A DNA stretch of 64,000 nt, taken from assembly GCA_973895155.1 (NCBI GenBank), contig OZ316894.1, forward strand, positions 7,154,234 through 7,218,233, read 5' to 3'. This document shows, piece after piece, positions 17,585 through 63,759 of this stretch (positions within the stretch are counted from its first letter, which is position 1; every line of letters starts with the position of its first letter). Under the pieces are notes generated by a model. It did no database searches. It was not told the origin of the DNA and saw only the letters and a program-made list of their open reading frames with translations. The DNA comes from Marsupella aquatica (taxonomy: Eukaryota > Plantae > Marchantiophyta). A program made the position numbers and the translations under genes.

Positions 17585-19410
17585 TAGTCAGGGCTAGTAA
17601 AATAAAAATGCACATGTTTGAAGAGGAGAGGTGCAGTAGTTTCTGGGTAAATGAAAAATGGTTGAAGTGAGGAGAGGTACTGTAGTTTTTGGGTGACAGA
17701 CAAGCACACTAAATTAACTCGGACTAGAATACATAGTTGTGCCACTTTTACAGTGGTGGTCATTGAAAATTTGCAGGGCACAAAATTAAAAAATCTGGTG
17801 AAAGGTAAGTAATAAAGTCAGGGCTAGTAAAATAAAAATGCACATGTTTGAAGAGGACAGACAAGTACTCTAAATTAAGTCCTATAATACACAGAGTGGT
17901 GCGTCATTGAAATTTTTCTTTTCGGGCACAAAATTAAAAAATCTGGTCAAAGGTAATAAAGTCAGGGCTAGTAAAATAAAATTGCACATGTTTGCAGAGG
18001 AAAGGTGCAACAGTTTTTGTGTAAATGAATTAAAAATGCACAGATTTGAAGAGAGGAGAGGTGCTGTAGTTTTGGGGTGACAAACAAGTACACTAAATTA
18101 ACTCCTATAATACACAGCCACTTTTTACAGTGGTTGTCATTGAAATTTGCAGGGCAAAAAATTAAAAAAATCTGGTGAAAGGTAAGTAATAAAGTCAGGG
18201 CTAGTAAAATAAAAATGCACAGGTTTGAAGTGAGGAGAGGTACTGTAGGTTTTGGGTGACAGACAAGCACACTAAATTAACTCCTATAATACATAGTTGT
18301 GTCCCTTTTTACAGTGGTGGGCATTGAAAATTTGCAGGGCACAAAATTCAAAAATCTGGAGAAAGGTAAGTAATAAAGTCAGGGCTAGTAAAATAAAATT
18401 GCACATGTTTGAAGAGGAGAGGTGCCATAGTTTCTGGGTAAATGAATTAAAAATGTACAGGTTGGAAGTGAGGAGAGGTACTGTAGTTTTGGGGTGACAG
18501 ACAAGTACACTAAATTAACTCCTGTAATACACAGTAGTGCCAATTTTTACAGTGGTTGTCATTGAAATTTGCAGGACACAAAATAAAAAATCTGGTGAAA
18601 GGTTAGTAATAAAGTCAGGGCTAGTAAAATAAAAATGCACATGTTTGAAGAGGAGAGGTGCCGTAGTTTCTGGGTAAATGAATTAAAAATGCACAGGTTT
18701 GAAGTGAGGAGAGGTACTGTAGTTTTGGGGTGACAGACAAGTACACTAAATTAACTCGTGTAATACACAGTAGTGCCACTTTTACAGTGGTGGTCATTGA
18801 AAATTTGCAGGGCAAAAAATTAAAAAATCTGGTGAATGGCAAGTAATAAAGTCAGGGCTACTAAAAAAACAAATGCAAGCCATATGTTTGACGAGAACAG
18901 ACAAGTACACTAAATTAAGTCCTACAATACACAGACGCACCACTTTTCAGAGTGGTGCGTCAGTGAAATTTGGTGGGCAGAAAATTTAAAAATCTGGTCA
19001 AAGGTAAGTAATAAAGTCAGGGCTAGTAAAATAAACATTGCACATGTTTGAAGAGGAGAGGTGCAGTAGTTTCTGGGTAAATAAATTAAAAATGCACAGG
19101 TTTGAAGTGAGGAGAGGTACTGTAGTTTTGGGGTGAGAGACAAGGACACTAAACTCCTGTACTAATACATAGTTGTGCCACTTTTTACAGTGGTTGTCAT
19201 TGAAATTTGCAGGGCAAAAAATTAAAAAATCTGGTGAAAGGTAAGTAATAAAGTCAGGGCTAGTAAAATAAAAATGCACATGTTTGAAGAGGACAGACAA
19301 GTACACTAAATTAACTCCTATAATACACAGTTGCGCCACATTCTACAGTGATTGTCATTGAAATTTGCAGGGCACAAAATTAAAAAATCTGGTCAAAGGT
19401 AAATAATAAA
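17585..19410. repeat. Satellite array of 9 units: ~235-bp monomer plus 144-184-bp deletion variants
   Basis: GTCAGGGCTA anchors at 17587, 17817, 17961, 18194, 18378, 18614, 18851, 19016, 19253. Confidence 0.95.
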
Positions 19411-20675: not shown

Positions 20676-22935
20676 TGTTGTCTGTTGCCAAAATTCAGAA
20701 TCAATAGTATGACTCCACACCAGGTTTCTAGCCTCCTGCACACTCAATCCCAAAAAATCCAAGATTGTACTCTGCAAAATGCCCAAGGAAATGTGTCACT
20801 TGTCTATCCAACGATTAATACGTGCAAACCGTACTTTTCTTTGCTTAAACCGTTGGTATCGTATTATGGGGTCGTGGAGGGACGCTATTTGGAGGATTTC
20901 CACACCTAAGGATGAGTATGTTTGATTCCGCTCCCGGAAGTGTACTTTTTTGATCAAGTCCAAGGGACTGGTCCTACCATCTACAACTCATGCCCACCGG
21001 GTGAGTGTTGTCACCACCCCCCTCTCATGGGCAAGCATACAAACATTTACAATAAGATTTGAACACTAGTGACAAGGGCAAATGTTTCCACAACGAAACC
21101 GACCACATGCACTAGGGGAGGAAACAAACAACACAAGCAACAACAAGTGACACACAAAATATTGGAACCTCAAGCCAAATCCAGATCTCTTGGTGTTTCC
21201 CGTAACACATGCAAGGACAACCCGACCTCCTACCGTCTGCCCAACTCCTGCCTCGGGGGGACAAGTGCTACGTTCTCCACCTCACTACTCTGGCTTGAAC
21301 TTCTCCTAATTGGTGCGCTACTCACAAAAGCTACTCAAAAGCATTAGAGCACTACGATGAGTTCCCCCCCCCCCTCACTACTCCGGGGCTCTCCCCTTAA
21401 ATACTGGAAACAAACACACCAAAGCACCCCTCACGGGGTCACAAAGATGGCGGCTACCCTAGCGGCACCGCTAAAACTCTTCATGAAGAAATCCCTAATC
21501 CTAAAGAATGCGGCAAACACATGCTCCTAAAAACCCTAATCTAACTATGGGACCGACGATGCCTTCGACGGCGCCCCCCAACATCGCTACGTAAACCGTG
21601 AAAACGCAAGGGACCCCACAATTGCCGAAACTAGGTGCCACTCTGATTTCACCCCTGAGCTCACCCTTGGGTAGCCCTGCTCCCCCTGATCATGAATCAC
21701 CAAACCGCTCCCAAAACGGACGCCGGACGACCAAGTTATGGTCGTTTTAGTTTCCTATACCGACCAACTTCGTCGGGCCCTAACTTACTCATCCTGGCTC
21801 CATTTGAGGAGCGCTGCCTCTTGTTAGAATCAGCTCCACGAGCTCTTTCCAACAAGCCCGTGAGTGCCCACTTCCGAAAAGTTTTCAAAGTCAAGAGATC
21901 ATACGACCAAGTCCGTACGGCTACCCTAGTCCTCCTCCTCACTCACGATGCTCTGGCTTGGGCCCCGTGAGTTGGTCTCCTCATCAGTCCTCCTTCTCCT
22001 CACTCACGGTGCCCTGGCTTGAGCTCCATGAGTTGGTCTCCTCATCGCTCTCTATTGGAGTGGATACCACTCCGCTAAACAATGGCTCACTTGAGTCCAC
22101 CACCTCCTATCCTATCTATCTACCCTACCAGCCTCAATCCTCCTTATCGCCACCACCGGTCCGTTGTAAAAGGAGGGGGCCCCTATAATTGTCGAAACTA
22201 AAATTTTCTCAAAATTCACTTCTGAAAACATATATGAGGAGCCCTCCTCTTCCTGATCATGGCTCCGTAAACGGTGCACAAAATGGAGATCAAACGACCA
22301 AGATATGATCGTTTAACTTTTCACGGGGCACCGTCTCCCTCCGTTTTGTCCGTACAACACCAGGGGGCTCCGGCTTTGCAAAACATAGATCACGGGTTCT
22401 TCTTATGTGCTGCTACCTCCTCCTTCCCTTGCAAAACCGGGACCTCCTGCCGTACGGCCTCAAAACCCCCGTATTCTCAAAAAACGCGATCTATTGTATC
22501 TCCCCCGTCTTAGCTCTGTTTCGGTCGTGTGACACATCTTTGGATTCAGCTCGGCAAGCTCTTTCCAACAAGCCTGTAGAATCCTGATTTTGAGATGGTC
22601 AAAAATCTGATGTTCGTACAACCAGGGTCCGTACACACGTTGAAAGCAAGCACAAGAGGGAAAGGGTTTAGGGTTTAGGTATGGGTAGAAACCCCACAAG
22701 TGAGAATAGAGAAAAAGGGAAGGAAGAAAGTGTGAGGGCCCCTTCTACGAATGTGTTCTTCTACGGAGTGCCTCTCTACGAAGTGGGGAAGGGAAAGAGA
22801 GCAAAAACCATGTGAGGACCACACAAAGGGTGAAGGGGAACACAATTGTGGGAACCCCTTCCTTCTAAGGGCCCTCCCACCATCACTACTCCAAGATTGC
22901 CTAGTTTGCCATTTTACGGGCGTTGAGGTCCCTCA
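20676..22935 (-). mobile_element. Probable solo LTR (~2.26 kb) of a Ty3-type element
   Basis: TG...CA ends with AGAT on both sides; non-coding; internal diverged duplication (~21640-21900 vs ~22210-22610, AGCTCTTTCCAACAAGCC); TATTTAA near 21400 on the minus strand; telo-box motifs. Confidence 0.5.
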
Positions 22936-23442
22936 AGATGTCACTGTTTGATATAGACCTAAAATCAACTAGAGAACCTCAGTTTTGCATGGGGCTCATT
23001 GAGGGCTTCAAATGAATCCAAACATGACCATGTTTGGAATAGTACTAGCGCAGCAACGTCTGTTTTAAGTTTCAACATCTTCTATATTTTGATCATTCTT
23101 CTTGTTTTGCGCCTTACGTGGAACCTCCGACCAGCCCCCACCCCTCCAATATGCCCACACCTTGGCTCCAAGTCCTTGGGCTGCCTTGTGGCCTCCTTGT
23201 ACCCCCTCAATGGTTCCCTTGTCATCCATCATCGCCCGACACCCCTCACAACTCCGGCCTCCGGTTATCGCATCCATTTATTAGAACTAACAAAAATAAA
23301 AAATTTGAAAATCTAAAAACTTTTACTACACCTACTTGTCTTTCTACTTATATATGTAATTATAAGTCATCACTAAGTTACTACCGGGTTTGGGGCCCTG
23401 TCACAAAATGCCTTGTTGTTAGGGAACTCTCGGGGGTCTCAC

Positions 23443-24780
23443 TATATGGATGCAACACACTTCACCATATCCACAATATCATTCTCCGAAAATGGGACCT
23501 CATCATTTTCAGAGCCAAGCGCATTGAATCCATACGGAATGTTTGCAATCGCAAGTGTGTAATTCATTTTCTCTACAAACTTATCCAGCGCCCTAACATC
23601 TCCACAATGCAATGTATATCTGATGAAATTTCCATCAGCATTTTTCCACCGATGGTCACTCGACTATGCTTCAAACGTTTCTATCCCACGATGACGGTTG
23701 TAGTTCTCAATCGCCTCTTGAACATAATTCTTAAACCCTAGGGGAATAACACTCGAAGTCAGCTCCTTTGAAGGCTTCTCAACCACATCGGCACCAATTG
23801 CTTCTTTGTTCATCTTCTTCGAAAAGGCTTTCAACTGCAAACACAAACTTGTTAAAAGAATCCGGACAAAAGAAAATGGGGAGCCTAAACCATTTGCGCA
23901 TTCAAACAACGTAATCATGTTGGAAAGTAATCGAATCTTCAGGATGAATGCGACATGGGATATGCGGTATCCAAATTTGCATTCAAACAAGCAAAACCCA
24001 CATCAAAACCTCCCCAATGTCAAAACTCCACAAGTGAATCCAAAATGGGATACCCCGTATGGACCCACTTCACATTCAAACCTCAAATACCTAAAGAAAA
24101 CCTCCACAATGTTCAAAAACCCAAAGTGAATCCGAGATGGGATACCCCGTATCCCACTCCACATTCAAACAACAAATCCAGTAAGAAAACCTCCCAACAA
24201 AGCAAAATATGATATTGAATCCAAGATGGGATACAGACTGTGTATCCCTCTCTGGATTCAAACAACAATTACCGTCAGAAAACCCATACCATATCCTATT
24301 AGTCGATCATTTGAGAAACAAATAGGAAATTCCAATCAATGGAGGTGGAGAACATACCACATTGAACAACTTCCCACTCCATCTTTCGAGCTTGGCAAAT
24401 TCTGTTTCCTTCAAAAACATTTGTTTGCACGTCGCCTAGTCTGGTTCCCTGACAACTGAACAAAAAGCTTGCTGATTTTAACAAGTTTATTGTAACTCTC
24501 GGCTTCTTTTGCCATCTGCTCAAGAGATATCATCCGGTCCTTCACTCAGAGAAGAAGTGACTCCAAAAATGGTCGTGTTCAATTCCCGAGATTGCTCTCC
24601 AAGGTGTCGGGGTAAGGCCCCCTACGAGCTTATTCAAAGATTTCAGAATTGGCTGCGCTTTTCCCTTTCCTTTCTTGAGTTTCTTGATTGGCGACTTTTG
24701 CTTATTCTGCCCTTTGATCTCCAACCTATTCCACATATCAAAGATCTGGTCTTGGAGTTCCCAGACCTTACCTGACCTAA
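23443..24780 (-). pseudogene. Fragment of an intron-containing gene with the N-terminal half of a beta-class N4/N6 DNA methyltransferase-like domain
   Basis: Reading through the TAG at 23664-23666 gives 'YTLHCGDVRALDKFVEKMNYTLAIANIPYGF', matching the GD...(D/N)PPY layout; upstream exon has 'SLEQMAKE', similar to 'SIEELAKD' at ~62260. Confidence 0.65.
23945..24290. repeat. ~90-bp tandem repeat x4, probably intronic in the MTase-like fragment
   Basis: ATGGGATACCCCGTAT...CATTCAAAC...AAAACCTCC...GAATCC recurring at ~23955, 24045, 24137, 24226. Confidence 0.85.
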
Positions 24781-26608
24781 AGGTAATTTGGAAGAGAGGT
24801 TCATGCTTCTTCAGGCTTATGCTCGGGGGGGGGGGTCACTATATGGAGGGCCATACATCGCGTGCAACGTTTTAGGGTTTGATCCCCATAACTTATAAGT
24901 GAAATTGTTTTTTTTACAAAACCCTTTCTTTCTTTCAATTTTGTCATTTTTTACTAAAAAACCCCTAAAAACTTTAAAGAAAGTATTTTTTACAATTAAA
25001 TAAGCCTATGTGTTCTTTACAGTCAACCAGTCAATAAAACATGCCCTATGTGTTCTTCCACCAAACTTTAGAAGTCTTCCGCCACACCCATTTAAATGGG
25101 CCTATACTTCATCGCACGTGACCCCCGAGGGCTTATGGCATCCCCTGGAAAAAACCCATCGAGACACACCTCCAAGGCACACGCTTCTCTGGTCTCCTTG
25201 GTTTTTGCCATCATCAGACATTTCACTAATTCTGGAAAATTCTCCCAAGAATGGAACATTGAAAAGTGTTTTTTGGAAATTTAGAGAAGGGGTTTTGGAA
25301 TTTTTAAAACGAGGTTTTGGAATATTTAGTTTAGAGTTTTGGAATTTTCAGATTAGAGTTTTGGAATGAACACTAAGGGCACCATTGAAATTGAAATTTG
25401 AGTTTGGCAATTGAGGTCACCCATATTTGAATACTGAATAGCAAACCTGCGATGAGGAGTCCCATTACAACTTTATTGGGGACTGGTTGGGGCAAGGTAT
25501 GGGCTTGGAAAGGAGCAGCCCCTTAAGACCATTTTGTGAAGAATTGAAAATAAGATACAAGCCCCAACTTCTCTAATCACCCGATAGACCATTCACACTG
25601 TTAAAAAAATATCAAGAGGAAGGCCTCTGGGTTAGAAGCTTGGCCCAAAGAGGGGGGCCTTCTAGAGCCCGAGGATCGGATAGCCGCCGGATGCAAGGAA
25701 TCTGAGTTGAGCTTAGCTCTATCAAGGAACTTGTAATCAAGTCTACTTAATTGCTCGGTGAACTCTGGGATGAATATCGCACAATTTGTAGAAATGAAGG
25801 AGTATCGCACAATTTATAGAAATGACTTCAATGACAAAGTCGTGGCCCTACCGAATGCACAATGTTGGATGAGCCGGACACTGCAACCTCTATGCGACAA
25901 GAGGTGACACAAAAGAACGAGATACATGGGAGCTGAACGTACCATGCAAGTGATTGACAACGTGCATACAATTTTGCAAAGGATGCAAAATTGTTTTTAT
26001 TCTTCACAAAAATAGTTGATGTTGGAAGAGGCATCCCTCAAACCAACGCCATCGATGCCAAAACTAAATGAAATCTATTTCAAAACCTCCGATACAAAAC
26101 TATATTCAAAATCTATTGGGAATATGACTCAACCACAACTACTCACGGTAGTTGGCACAAAGATATGGGTAAGACAGTCGTGGAGGAGTAGAAGGACCTC
26201 AACATTCTACACGAGATTGGCGCAGAAAGAGATTTGGGTAAAATAAATTATCTATGATCACACAGTTGGAAGAGACATTCCTCCAACCAAGGCCCTGGTT
26301 CCCAAAAACCATTCAGATAAGGAAATCTCCTTCACAAGCTTAAAGTAGATAAAAATGTGAGCATACGCAATCTAAATTTTCCGGCGCCCAATATCTATGC
26401 GAGACTCGCATTATCCTCAAAATGCTTCAAAAACTTAAGACTCTCCCAAATGACTTCAAAACTTAATCGCGCCAAGAAGATGGCATCCACTCATCCGAGT
26501 TTGGAGTGGATGCGCAAGAGTCAAGGAATGCTAGAGATACTATAGTGTGAACCTCGACAGATAGTGTCTGTGGTTAGCAACTTAATTCAACAGTGCCCAA
26601 TTGCTAGC

Positions 26609-28420
26609 ATGTCTTACAATCCTGATTCTAGTTATGAACCTACGGAAAGACCCACCTACACCCGGTCTCAATATGAGCACCTTTTTTTTAGGGAGGATCT
26701 TCCTGAAGACTCTGATCCACCCTCAGATGGTGAAACTTATAGACCCGGGTACGCAACTCTTATATAATAGACAGGGGTCTACATTTTTATATGGACTAAA
26801 AAGTTGGCTATACAAAATAATTAAAATTTGAAAAAACCTGGGTTTCCCACTTTTAAAAATTTTCAAGTCATATAAAAGGTTTGGTTTCCTTCATTTTCCA
26901 TATGAAATTAAAAAATATTCCTATACATGTTGTAATTTTTATTAAAAGATTTTTAAAATTTTAATAAAAATCCTAAAAAGCTGGCTAGTTTGGTTGTAGA
27001 CCCCTATATTAAAAAAAACCCATATAATTTGGTTTTGATCAACTTTTTGTACATCAAAACATGTTTGGTTTTTTTTTTAAGTTACATTTTTGGATTCCTT
27101 GAGTTCAGAGGTACAAGACTTTAGTAGACTAAAATGAAATCTAAGATGGTCAATTGGATATAAGGCCATTATAAGGAATTAAAAACTTGCCTTATAAAAA
27201 GGGGAGTTGCATACCCGGGCTTATAGATCTTATGATAATTCTCTTGAGTCATCCCCAAGGCAAGGATTTGAAGATGTTGAAGCTGCATTACGGTCAAACC
27301 CAAATTTAGTGGCAGTGGTCACCTTGTCTACCCAAACCCCCAGGAATGCTACTATTGAAAGCAGGTACCCCAGACATCCTGAGTCACAAATGCACAGGTA
27401 TGTCACCACTTGCAAAATAATGCAGGCCAATCTCGGGGGTTTCATTTCCACAAAAATAGCATATCACGTGCGACGAAGGATAGGGTCATTTTATTGGTTC
27501 TAAGGGAAGACTTAAGAATTTTTGTAGAAGAACAATAGGGTCTTTTTAATTCAATTTTGAGACTTATAAGAACATTAGGGTCTTTTTAATCCAATTTTTA
27601 GAATATTCTGGAATATTCCAAGAATATTCCAACTTTATAGGGGTTAAAAAATAAATATTTTTTCTTACATTTTAGGGGGTCCGAGGCCTGAAAACGTCGC
27701 AGGTGATGGGAGGTCCCCATATAGTGAGACCCCTGAGAGGCCAATAGACCACCGGTTGGAGAACTTTGGAGATACTACTATCTGAAGAAGACTGAGGCAA
27801 GCTACATCTTTGATCTTAGGTGTCTTGGTACTTCTAGAGTGGAGATGGCACAATTTGATGAGTTTTGGACTGACTCTATCTACTTCCGACCCATACTGGC
27901 TATGATGCTGCTACAAGGTGATGTGAAGGTGGAGGATCCTGATTTAGTCCTAATATATTTTGGGAACTTTGCAGCTTATGCTCTGGATTTTATAATCTCT
28001 TTCCTTATGCAAAGTAAGAAGTCTACTCCTCTTCAGAATGATTACATTCCACAAAAGCCCAAGGTTGTACTCGTTTCGACCAATACCTTAGCTGATAAAC
28101 AGAGGATATGGAATAATGTTACCTCTCAGACTCTTACAGAATTCAACCGATACTTCAAAGATCATGTTATTTGGAGGTTTCATCCATTCTATTCTAGAAT
28201 GATGAGAACTGAAGATTTCCTATTCCATTACCCTCAAGTTTATGCTGCTACCTGCAATCACTATGATGTGATTGGAATTTACCGAGAGGCACTTCGTATA
28301 GATTCATGTTACTTAATGAAGAGAATGCCTCTTATGTATCCTGTGAGACAACTAAGATGCCTACCCTATTCTCGAGGATCACCGCATCAAGCAGAACTTA
28401 TGGAAGTCACTCAAGCTTGA
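26609..28420 (+). pseudogene. Possible three-exon gene of unknown function, probably degenerate TE cargo
   Basis: ATG 26609; donor GG|GTACGC ~26749 and acceptor cttatag ~27226 join in frame (RPG/SYDN); the last ORF (27839-28420) extends upstream to a TGA; no domain recognised. Confidence 0.35.
26773..27005. repeat. AT-rich segment bounded by 11-bp inverted repeats (MITE-like)
   Basis: AGGGGTCTACA at 26773-26783 and TGTAGACCCCT at 26995-27005; no clear TSD. Confidence 0.4.
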
Positions 28421-59067: not shown

Positions 59068-59960
59068 TCAAAAAGTGTCTGGGATTTCTCTATACAGACC
59101 TGAATATTCCCGTCCTACAAATGATCTAGCAAGTGAGATGACAAGTGCATTGTCAAGTTCCACCTCAGGACGTAAGCTACATATACGGTGCTTCACAGCC
59201 CAAGGAATCTCATTGCTATTGAGGTCCAACACACTATGCCTATACTGTGACTTCCAAATTTTTGCTACACATCTCTTACTAAGTTGATCATAAGTAATCT
59301 CATTTTTTGCCTTGTCTCTCTTAATGTGCAATAGAGACCACTTTGGAGAGTTTAGGAGAAGATAACAATGAATGTCACTTGCATGTGACAGTTTCTCAAG
59401 ACATGGCCAAAGAATTGTTAGAAGAAAATTGTCTCCACGATTGGCATGCGTGTAGGGCACTGGAAATAGTCCGGTCATGTCTGGGTTGGCAAATGCCTTC
59501 AAGGGGGAGTCATCCACAAGGAGTGTGTTGGTTTCATCATATAAATTTCCAAATGCACTCCATACCACCCGAAAATCCTTCAATAGCACATTTGCCTTTC
59601 CATTTGTAATGTCACGCCTTTGAATGCCTGTGTCAAAGGCTTCCACCTGTGTGAATACAAACTTCAGTTTCAACCGCTCCTCAATTGTGAACATCATGTT
59701 CAACATTTTCACTGTTCGCGGCATCCCAGCACATGTCCAAATTGCAACGTCAAACCGGTCAAAACCAACTTTAGAAACTCATGGAGCCCTGGCCTCTCTG
59801 TATACATGCGACTAGTTCCATTTGATCTATCCCAATGCACTCCACTTGAGGTGACAATATTCCTGGATGTGCCCTTGCTTTGGAATTCAATAGAATCCCA
59901 AAGTATTTTATTAAGGTCCAAAATCAGCAACTTCCGCTTGACGGGACCAGGTCTCGATTC
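59068..59960 (-). pseudogene. FCP1/NIF-like HAD phosphatase domain, frameshifted near 59760
   Basis: 'KRKLLILDLNKIL', 'ERPGLHEFL', 'VAIWTC', 'LLKDFRVVW', 'YDETNTLLVDDSPLKAFANP'. Confidence 0.85.
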
Positions 59961-62606
59961 TGCAAGTGCACCAAACACCATTCTCAGAGAAAAGATCAAA
60001 AGTGAACTTTGGATTAGGATTGTCTCAGTCCAAAAATACAAGACAGTGGCTTAAAGAAAATTAACCTACATACCATTTTTAGAACCCTCACAATGTGTAG
60101 ACGGATATGGAGACTTTAATTGGTGAGCGCATTCTGTGAGACCGAGAAGTATTTTAGATTGATATGAATAAATACAAAGTCAAAGGCTGAATTTCATTCC
60201 GAAATAAGAGATCCGTATTCATCAATAATCATGTCAGCACCAAGCTCCTGTTGGATTTCAAAATTGACATCTGAAGTACTTTGTTCTACCCAATAAGGTG
60301 AAGTCCAAACAGGAGTTATCAACCCCAATTCTCCACTCTTATACTCCTCCTTATTGAGAATTGAAGGAGCAGCATCCAATGATATTTCTTGGCCTCGATT
60401 TGGCCCACTTTTCCACACGTAACATCATGCGTCGCATTCCAATGACCTCCATCCAATTGATCCAACTCTATTTCCTTTCTTTTTTGAGAGTGGAAGGACA
60501 ATAGGACTCCCCGAGTGTGAATGAACGAACACCAATTTGTCATCAGAAGCTGAAAAGAGTGTGTCAGGACAAGTTGAAGCACCTGCCTGGTTGTCAACAG
60601 CCGTTGATGCATTTCCTCCTGGATTGATCGGAATGTCAGGCAATCCGCCAGTCTCCCCCTCGATCTCCCCCCGAGTCAATTCTTTAGTTTCAGCTTCATT
60701 TGAATCTCCAAGCCTCGTTGCGCCTTCATTGATCAGATTGGTTGAAGAAAGATGATCAAACGTATCAACCCTTGCTCCTTCCAGTTGCTCCATCTGTCCT
60801 CCCGGCGTTGTTGGATTGGGATCATCCTTGTCCAAGTTATCATCAACTTGAACTTCATTGGGCCCCGGAGGGATGTCATCTAAACCAGATGAACGGTTTG
60901 GTGCAAGTCCAATATCATCATCTACATCGTAAGGCTCACCTTGACCAACACGGTCATCCAAATTCTTGACATATGCCTCCTTTGATGCCTCTACGCCTTC
61001 AGCCACTTTGTCAGCAACATCTTCAGACTCAGAACCATCGGATTCAACAGCGACAGCTACAGCCGCAACAGTGGTAGCCCATTGTCAAGAATTTTCAGCA
61101 AGTGATTCACAATGAGCTTTAAGTGAGGGAACTCTCTCGCAAAGGTAGGAAGCAAAAGCTTCCACAAAATGCCTCTCGGAGTGAGAGTCACAATAAACAA
61201 AGCATTCCCTATCGCAAAAAAATGATGTCTTCATGACTTGGCCACCGGAGAAAAAATCTAGAACCAAATCTCCCGGTTCTGACAAGGATTCAATAATCCT
61301 TTGGATCATCCGCGTGGGTTTGGCATGAGGATTAACTCACCCTCCGCGACTGCCAGCTGTCTCAAATCGAGGGGCCATATTCATAATCTTGACGGCCTCT
61401 TCCGGGTCCAAAACCACTTTTAGGTCGTCATTTTGTGTCCCCTCATCTGATTCCTTAGCCTTCCCCTTTCCCTTGTCGATCTTGCATACTTCGTAATCAA
61501 CATCCTTTGCAGTATACAAGAATTTTGGCTTTGGATACTTGGGCTTGAAAACTTCATTCCAATTGATGTCTTCATCTCGAGAAATCCCCGCAAAGATAAC
61601 TTCTTCAATCCCCCCACCCCAACATGAGTCATGAGGGTGCGGTTGATCATCTCGAGAATAACTCCCATACTCAATGTGAATGGTCAAAGCTTTCTCTTGT
61701 CCCAGTTTACGAAGGGCACCATGGACATTCAATGCAAGTTGTCCAGGATGAACTGTTATCGTCACAACAATCGTGGGATTTTGTGGAAGCTCCACAATGT
61801 ATTCAAAGAGAACAAGAATCTCTGCTTCAGTCCATTGTTTTTGCGGAAGCCGGCTAAAATCAACAATGGCAAGAGGGCAGGTCGGAGGAGCTTCTTGCAA
61901 TGACTCTGGATCAATGGTCTTCATGAGATTGTCGCTAAAAAATGTAGCCCATGGTAGGGTCCGAGAATGTGATCCTCTGCCAAATTTCTGGCAGTATATA
62001 TCATCTAGGCGGAATGCCAATACCGTCGGCAAGATTGCGCTCTCCCGTGTATGATTTGGTTTTAAAAGGTTGGCAAGATAGACCTCGCCAGCGGCTCTTC
62101 AACACCTGCTGAACTCTGAATCAATTGCTAGCGTAGGAGGAACCTCCACTACTTTCCCCCAATTAGTATTTGTCGGGAAATTCACCGCATCCTTGGTGCA
62201 ATAGTAGTCTTCAATAAGGGACTTCAGTTTCCGCACGATCTTCACATCTTTGGCCAACTCCTCTATAGATGGCATGTCTGATTTATTAGAGGCATCTTTC
62301 TCACCATCAAAACAACCATCAACTCACCATCAAAACAACGAAACATGGCAACAGTAATTGCTTTTTCAGACTTCTCATTTCCTTCTACCCCAGCTCCATC
62401 GGGAAGTTTCCCATCCAACCACAATTGGCATACCAAACTCCATAACTCAAAAAGAGCATCGTCCGCAAACAGTAACCAGTAAACATTTTGACAATCTTTC
62501 CTTCCCATGGTCATTCTTGCAAGAGCCAACCAATCCTACAATTGCAAAGGAAAGTCTGTTAGTTCTCCATAACTCAATTGTTTGATAGCACTCAGGTGCG
62601 GATTGA

Positions 62607-62992
62607 GACCATCCCAGTCCAACACAGAACTAGACAGTATCAGTGGAAATATTCTATTGAATGTGCATGATTTAGTTTGGACTGGGACCATCCCAGTCCA
62701 GAACAAAACTAGACAGTATCAGTGGAAAAATAATCTATTGAATGTGTATGAATCCATTTGGACTGGGACCATCCAGTCCAACGCAAAACTAGGCGATATC
62801 AGTGGAAATATTCTACTGAATGTGCATGAATCCATTTGGATTGGGACCATCCCAGTCCAACACAAAACTAGACGATATCAATGGACAAAGATTCTACTGA
62901 ATGTGCATGAATCCATTTGGACTGGGACCATCCCAGTCCAACGCAAAACTAGGCCATATCAGTGGAAATATTCTACTGAATGTGCATGAATC
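62607..62992. repeat. ~80-bp tandem repeat x5 inside an intron
   Basis: GACCATCCCAGTCC anchors at 62607, 62686, 62767, 62845, 62926. Confidence 0.92.
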
Positions 62993-63759
62993 TACGGTAT
63001 TGTACCCATCAAGCAGTAACACTTCGTACCTGAAATTTTTGATTGTCTTGAGCGTTTGTTTTGTTGTCCCCATGTTTTGGCCGGCTAGGTCTTCCACAAT
63101 CCACAAATTGTCGCCTAGCATGAACGACTATATCTTTGAAGCATGACTGAAACACCATCGTGCTATTGATCGCATTAGATCACATTGAATGCTCAACTAA
63201 TATTGACGATGGTGTTTGATGAGATAATATTCTTGACTTTCAAAATTCCAGCTTTTTCGCCAATGCTGTCAGCTTGGCATCCTTGTTTGCCCATTCTCGA
63301 ATCCATCTGGCTACTCTAGCCAAATGTTGACCGCTAATGGCAAGGAATTGAACCTTGCCCTTTTTCACGGCTGCTACAAAGTCCCTCCTATCTGATTCTG
63401 TGTTGTCATACTGCATTAGGTTTCTATGTTTTGTAGTGTAAGGAATCAAGTCTGCTATGTGTGGTTCATGCCCCAGATTTCTTATCATGGAATTGGCCAC
63501 CTCCTTTACATGGTCTGCATTCAACATTCTTTAACAGAGTCTTGCCGACGCAGGGAAAATACTGTCTATAGGAATAAAAAATATTGAATTGATCCCAAAC
63601 GTATAATATTGCTCCATTTGTTGCAATACCTCATTACCTTCTAAGACCTTCTTCTCCTCAGGAGCGTCCAACTGCTCGTCCACATCTTGTGAATGCACTG
63701 TTAGGTTTTCTGTAGTGTCATCCATGATGGCACTGTCAATTTTCTGCTTCTTCTTCTAT

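Follow-up and report, generated by a model that had tools for sequence, protein, structure and literature searches.

In the brown alga Ectocarpus, the element Sola1-1_Ec32 is described as carrying, as cargo, an accessory protein with a ParB-like and an N4C/N6A methyltransferase domain, for which a self-binding, self-modifying role was proposed; the fusion architecture and the self-modification idea are already published for this element (PMC12477816). In red algae, the Plavaka accessory genes PAG2 and PAG3 are reported to encode a PF01555 methylase and a ParB-like domain as transposon cargo, with arrays of inverted repeats beside the ParB gene (bioRxiv 10.1101/2025.02.11.637652). In Marchantia, DN4MT1a and DN4MT1b are described as two host genes, active in sperm, with a TSPPY motif and an N4C product (bioRxiv 10.1101/2021.02.12.428880). 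For VANC, encoded by the Arabidopsis VANDAL elements, anti-silencing was tested in vivo, and the protein causes loss of 5mC (PMC5735166). A literature search (supplements outside its scope) found no description in land plants of the family reported below, and no published account of a DIPY or DVPY motif IV fitting it.

The window, i.e. the whole 64-kb stretch of DNA analysed, looks like repeat-rich plant genome. It holds, on the minus strand from about 25,270 to 23,452, a real methyltransferase-like gene fragment, longer than first noted. What remains here is a dead copy, truncated at both ends, of a two-part plant gene that is present in many copies. The gene is probably transposon cargo, and the protein of its intact copies is predicted to use a ParB-like region to bind palindromes in the gene's own intron; its beta-class methyltransferase domain would then methylate nearby DNA, most likely at adenine N6.

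The motifs quoted in the initial annotation are found on the minus strand where it placed them (TLHCGD starts at 23615, IANIPY at 23549 and SLEQMAK at 24527, with SIEELAK at 62269 in a second gene). The last surviving exon (23452..23834, minus strand) encodes the end of a linker and the N-terminal half of a beta-class methyltransferase, covering the GD strand, motif IV and then a helix; it is split by a TAG stop at 23666-23664 and cut at about 23452. Motif IV (23532..23543, minus strand) reads N-I-P-Y in this copy and aligns to DPPY of CcrM. A GT-AG intron (23835..24357, minus strand) is preceded in the gene by an exon of the helical region 3' of the ParB core (24358..24813, minus strand), which includes the WRA...ISLEQM block, with SLEQMAKE at 24527-24504, and is damaged by stops at 24548 and 24438-24436 and by frameshifts near 24569 and 24445. 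A 308-bp MITE (24822..25129, given without strand; ends CTCGGGGG..TCAC) lies inside the exon and, once it is skipped, an upstream coding piece (25130..25268, minus strand; 5' limit uncertain) is in frame with it. The left end of the same MITE family, 23 bp long (23429..23451, plus strand), is found at the cut point of the gene. The window copy is without the ParB core, which was searched for within the 64-kb window and not found, and without the SAM-binding half, as it ends before motif I. A single stop had been thought to hide the fragment from the open reading frames; the TAG does split the last exon, but the whole gene piece has three stops and two frameshifts.

Along its length, the read-through of the two window exons matches the second repeat of a Chara protein, the exons following one another there as in the window, with a score of 215 which none of 500 shuffles reached; it is 41-52% identical to five metagenome loci (L054-L058). 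A stop-free 73-aa segment matched the family profile, built without the window sequence, at E 1.4e-27, the best of 999 shuffles being 0.14, and also scored above all 999 shuffles against a phage methylase profile (E 0.005). The fragment alone (138-aa read-through) had no match in Pfam, PHROGs, useful PDB sequences or a word-based search of longer proteins; metallophosphoesterase rows, with E of 1.7-2, were discarded as chance. The methyltransferase profile match anticipated for the IPYG segment is therefore missing from Pfam and PHROG, and is obtained by way of intermediate homologues and family profiles.

The state of other copies was read from contigs of four sequencing runs, belonging to two studies. 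In all four runs, most of the depth has sense codons in place of the stops at 23666 and 24548; the stop at 24437 is a sense codon in the three runs covering that site. Part of the depth lacks the frameshift near 24569 in three of the four runs, and the one near 24445 in the three runs that cover it. Position 23543 shows T>C in each of the four runs, where the D codon accounts for 959/994, 2401/2401, 372/372 and 3709/3933 depth units, so that sister copies encode D-I-P-Y. As these copies read D-I-P-Y without the stop, the N of NIPY is decay private to the window copy, which amends the D/N-IPY of the initial annotation. Past 23452, at the 23-bp MITE end, other copies go on in frame as ..EVTSSPMWR. 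Many near-identical open sister copies are present in the run contigs; a contig matching the window copy has a depth of 35 in run X1, a value which is not a count but suggests tens of copies. The window copy itself, with three stops, two frameshifts, a MITE insert and missing parts, is dead and truncated at both ends.

The 308-bp MITE is flanked by an 8-bp target duplication, GGCTTATG, at 24814-24821 and 25130-25137. Contigs of other copies skip it, with a joint from 24813 to 25130, and loose ends at 24818 match the sequence at 25137; many unrelated flanks join at 24825 in the run contigs. Members of the family (24822-25129, 27342-27737 and 23429-23451) have a very high depth and the ends CTC(G/A)GGGGT..CACTATATGG. 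A single element bounded by inverted repeats at 23427 and 27739 is ruled out, since contig joints and target duplication identify separate MITE insertions. A transposase or element ends were looked for beside the window copy and not found.

The fragment sits among nested repeats. A high-depth LTR-like repeat ending in TGTCACA (about 21000-23405) adjoins the cut gene, and no matching target duplication was seen for it. A LINE reading of 25.4-26.7 kb was dropped, being without Pfam support, and a 227-aa open frame in repeated DNA at 27737-28420 (plus strand) has no Pfam match. Farther away are a large tandem array (17586-19410; periods 165-236 bp) and Ty3/gypsy copies, nested or in tandem (30565-58586), which include a direct repeat of 10.8 kb at 93% as well as long additional ORFs.

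A phmmer search with the fragment matched 27 proteins, about 20 of which are true homologues, sharing the LAIAD[IV]PYG region or the stretch preceding it; six (P0010, P0016, P0018, P0024, P0026 and P0027) are repeat-protein artefacts and were excluded from all alignments. The named sources of the homologues are Chara braunii, Riccia sorocarpa and Diphasiastrum complanatum, together with plant-like metagenome contigs. A profile search collected 52 proteins; two of them bear Gb_ labels and are taken to be from Ginkgo. Full-length homologues are fusions of a ParB-like region and a beta-class amino-methyltransferase and match PF01555, above the cut-off for P0006, L054 and L056. The family profile aligns GD..DIPY to the GD..DPPY of CcrM (whole-sequence E 0.02), in agreement with the beta-class layout initially proposed, and the motifs of intact homologues follow one another as DIPY, YQKP and DLCCGTG, corresponding to the beta-class order IV - TRD - I.

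Motif IV is covered by 56 of 71 homologue rows, and reads DIPY in 37, DVPY in 10, DLPY in 2, DFPY in 1, NIPY in 2 and otherwise in 4. D-x-P-Y, with I, V, L or F as the second residue, is thus found in 50 of the 56 rows and SPPY in none, counts which are biased, as the queries bore the motif and the rows include near-duplicates. Compared with the consensus (D/N/S)PP(Y/F/W), the P in second position is replaced, giving D-I/V-P-Y. Motif I is DLC[CSA]G[TS]G in 35 of the 44 covering rows and FSGSG in Chara and Ginkgo rows, the F of FxGxG being mostly C in the homologues. For a weak model of homologue P0006 (mean pLDDT 52), the nine best Foldseek rows are CcrM, PvuII and BceJIV, the best CcrM row having an E of 1.2e-4, while a wide structural search placed Mur-ligase domains first (Z 9.5) and CcrM seventh (Z 7.9, rmsd 6.0, 165 aligned). 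At the sequence level, the assignment to the beta-class amino-methyltransferases is supported.

In 14 of 15 homologue pairs, saturation has been reached at synonymous sites, with pN of 0.14-0.33, and the one unsaturated pair (dN 0.066, dS 0.88) has a dN/dS of about 0.075; as measured on these coding sequences, the protein family is under purifying selection. Relatives are also found in phages, as 39 distinct stand-alone ORFs of 165-265 aa, 21-49% identical. This group (L001-L053) consists of beta-class methylases with D[IV]PYG, 37 of the 39 distinct ORFs having DVPY and two DIPY, in a set that had been selected by the D[IV]PY pattern; they offer a possible bench proxy for the activity of this motif variant. 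A scan of prokaryote genomes gave 14 pattern matches, none of them confirmed, and no donor was found there or among the phage relatives.

In L054, L056, L057, L059 and Chara a ParB-like region is N-terminal to the methylase, and the window copy keeps its helical part only. The first exon of the relatives matches HTH_ParB at E 8.6e-4, which is below the cut-off, and Spo0J at GHWRAL..LSLEQ (E 0.17). Its predicted fold is closest to ParB/Noc/Spo0J (best E 0.002, for a low-confidence model with a mean pLDDT of 52), and the 15 best of the rows listed consist entirely of entries for ParB, Noc, Spo0J, the KorB complex or PadC. On the basis of these matches, SLEQMAKE likely lies in the DNA-binding helices of ParB. 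Its reported echo of SIEELAKD in the 62-kb gene is collinear, but of marginal significance: the pairwise score was reached by 5 of 2000 shuffles, and the profile score was 19.2, where the highest of 20 shuffles had 18.7. Upstream open frames, alike by eye and with no Pfam match, are found 5' of the ParB-like exon in L054 (403-1779) and L056 (138-1235). In the window, a 27-codon remnant at 20676-20756 (minus strand), FLGLSVQEARNLVWSHTIDSEF, matches the motif next to the ParB region in this family (profile E 1.8e-4; reversed sequences score -1.4 bits at best); given its lack of collinearity with the piece at 23-25 kb, it probably represents a third copy.

The intron at 24357-23835 sits three codons after W..KL, before F/L, a position common to the window copy and all five close loci (L054-L058). 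It contains a minisatellite (23945-24284, period 89-93 bp; 24005-24234 with period 89-92 in a first delimitation), whose units carry GGGATAC-N3-GTATCCC palindromes, perfect at 24138 and 24228; these two are the only perfect palindromes of the window copy, and outside the intron there are none. The 62-kb gene also has a minisatellite (62600-62994, period 81). A minisatellite in a putative intron had been noted in both genes; both were found, the first within the GT-AG intron, but the introns occupy different protein positions. Perfect palindromes with arms of 6 or more were counted in introns, and each count was compared with 200 shuffles. Those of L054, L056 and L058, three of the five close loci, exceed all shuffles, and that of the 62-kb intron was reached by 6 of 200; the counts of L057 (32/200), the window copy (47/200) and L055 (70/200) are not significant. 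The palindromes differ by member, being GGACTGGGA-CCA-TCCCAGTCC at 62 kb, GAGCGAGAC-N2-GTCTCGCTC in L054, L057 and L058, and CCCGAT-N6-ATCGGG in L056.

The 62-kb gene (61073..63620, minus strand; approximate limits) is a distant family member with a ParB-like start, a minisatellite intron and a methylase fold. It matches PF01555 at E 8e-7, with motif IV eroded to DFSR and motif I reading DFFSGG, and has three homologues, one of them from Calypogeia fissa. CPLAIVDF(S/T)R is kept in all four members of this branch, where the other branch reads LAIADIPYG. The two window proteins do not align directly: their last exons score 28 against a shuffle mean of 31, and the whole read-throughs score 53, in a non-collinear stretch, a value reached by 11 of 500 shuffles. 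The profiles of the two branches do align (probability 96.6, E 6e-10, score 85, 207 columns), while among the controls the reversed profile scored 22, the best of 20 column shuffles 28.7 and the phage methylases 26; a smaller profile-profile comparison was weaker (E 0.0013). Taken to the letter, both refuting conditions of the initial annotation thus apply (no pairwise alignment, no Pfam or PHROG match of the IPYG segment), but its reading holds on both counts once intermediate homologues and profiles are used. A tree of 29 rows, including 13 of the 39 phage rows and leaving out the window fragment, places the 62-kb branch among plant sequences, a placement which is only suggestive, given the very long stem (3.07) and the meeting of long branches. 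These comparisons support a family split into motif-intact and conserved motif-eroded branches, with the 62-kb gene as a distant offshoot. The multi-copy, diversified family with two such branches, foreseen in the initial annotation, holds at the sequence level. A NIF/FCP1-like phosphatase frame (59071-59974, minus strand; PF03031 E 2e-6) lies downstream of the 62-kb gene.

In the reading we consider probable, the gene would travel as cargo of a DNA transposon. ParB loads on parS; the ParB-like half of the plant protein would dock on the element's own palindromes. The beta-class domain would then, as a dimer, methylate nearby DNA, beta-class methyltransferases being described to work as dimers (PMC7544214). 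D rather than S in motif IV would favour a 6mA product, without being diagnostic (PMC4738411), and the N6-methyladenine mark may act as self-marking or anti-silencing for the element. Since the sister copies keep the catalytic letters, the family likely enables transposons to mark the DNA of their own copies with methyl-adenine. As neither transposase nor element end accompanies the window copy, carriage by a transposon rests on repetitiveness and on the Ectocarpus report (PMC12477816). A broader proposal is made tentatively: Chara, liverworts, lycophytes and Ginkgo may carry an active, transposon-borne, ParB-loaded adenine methyltransferase, every subfamily of which recognises the palindrome of its own intron and writes 6mA on its own DNA against silencing, with a writer (DIPY) and a derived reader-only branch (DFSR, the 62-kb gene) in one genome.

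Judging from its motifs, the 62-kb branch has likely lost catalysis and kept binding. As its eroded motif is conserved in four of four members, loss of the catalytic motif does not prevent the gene from being kept, and the whole family might by extension be a DNA-binding regulator, in which the methylase fold is a scaffold kept for dimerisation, SAM or base binding and no mark is written even by the DIPY branch, as for VANC-type anti-silencing proteins. The non-canonical DIPY and DLCCGTG motifs would agree with this, yet we regard it as unlikely, because D, P and Y and the glycine-rich SAM loop are conserved between Chara and land plants, across synonymous distances that have reached saturation, and the 39 stand-alone phage beta-class genes with the same D[IV]PY, chosen by that pattern, align over the whole domain. 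That the DIPY branch is an active writer of N4-methylcytosine, as are Marchantia DN4MT1 and rotifer N4CMT, seems to us quite improbable: in N4C enzymes, motif IV is described as beginning with serine (PMC4738411), where this family has D, even if both activities fall within PF01555 and the neighbours by structure and profile include PvuII (N4C) and rotifer N4CMT.

The gene could also belong to a host family, or be a captured piece of a host gene that Pack-type elements distribute passively, without serving the element in any way. The lack of a transposase near the window copy and the position of the fragment among nested repeats would fit, but this is very improbable in view of the many near-identical open sister copies, the several deeply diverged intact paralogues held by one metagenome assembly (L054-L058), the palindrome arrays specific to each member, and the cargo status known in algae (PMC12477816; bioRxiv 10.1101/2025.02.11.637652). 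If the transposon-borne methyltransferase reading is true, a self-written bacterial-type mark on plant transposons would add a new layer to the conflict of these elements with 5mC silencing, and would be a defined source for plant 6mA. The window locus is a fossil, of value as a pointer to the motif-intact branch, which is the one worth assaying; the intact relatives L056 and L057 supply both a protein and a predicted palindrome for a direct test.

Among the known systems, CcrM, M.RsrI, M.PvuII and M.BceJIV share with this family motif IV before motif I and the GD strand ahead of motif IV, as described (PMC7544214), and differ from it in D-I/V-P-Y for DPPY, C for F in motif I, the ParB-like fusion and the spliceosomal intron. 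DN4MT1a/b are likewise prokaryote-type beta-class methyltransferases of a seed-free plant, but the DIPY family is without TSPPY and has the ParB fusion; DN4MT1 is set apart by its description, where no such fusion is mentioned. VANC resembles the predicted plant protein in being encoded by an element and in having its targets in tandem repeats of non-coding DNA, which change fast; it is a functional analogue, with neither a ParB nor a methylase domain in its description (PMC5735166). The Ectocarpus Sola1-1_Ec32 protein, likened by described architecture and not by sequence, has both domains in one spliced eukaryotic gene and the same proposed role, but belongs to an intact 21.5-kb brown-alga element with transposase, whereas the window holds a land-plant-type dead fragment without element ends. 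Plavaka PAG2/PAG3 share the PF01555 methylase, the ParB-like domain and the repeat arrays; there, according to the description, the domains are on separate genes (methylase with SET, ParB with 2OG oxygenase), whereas in the plant family they are fused, and the palindromes lie in an intron.
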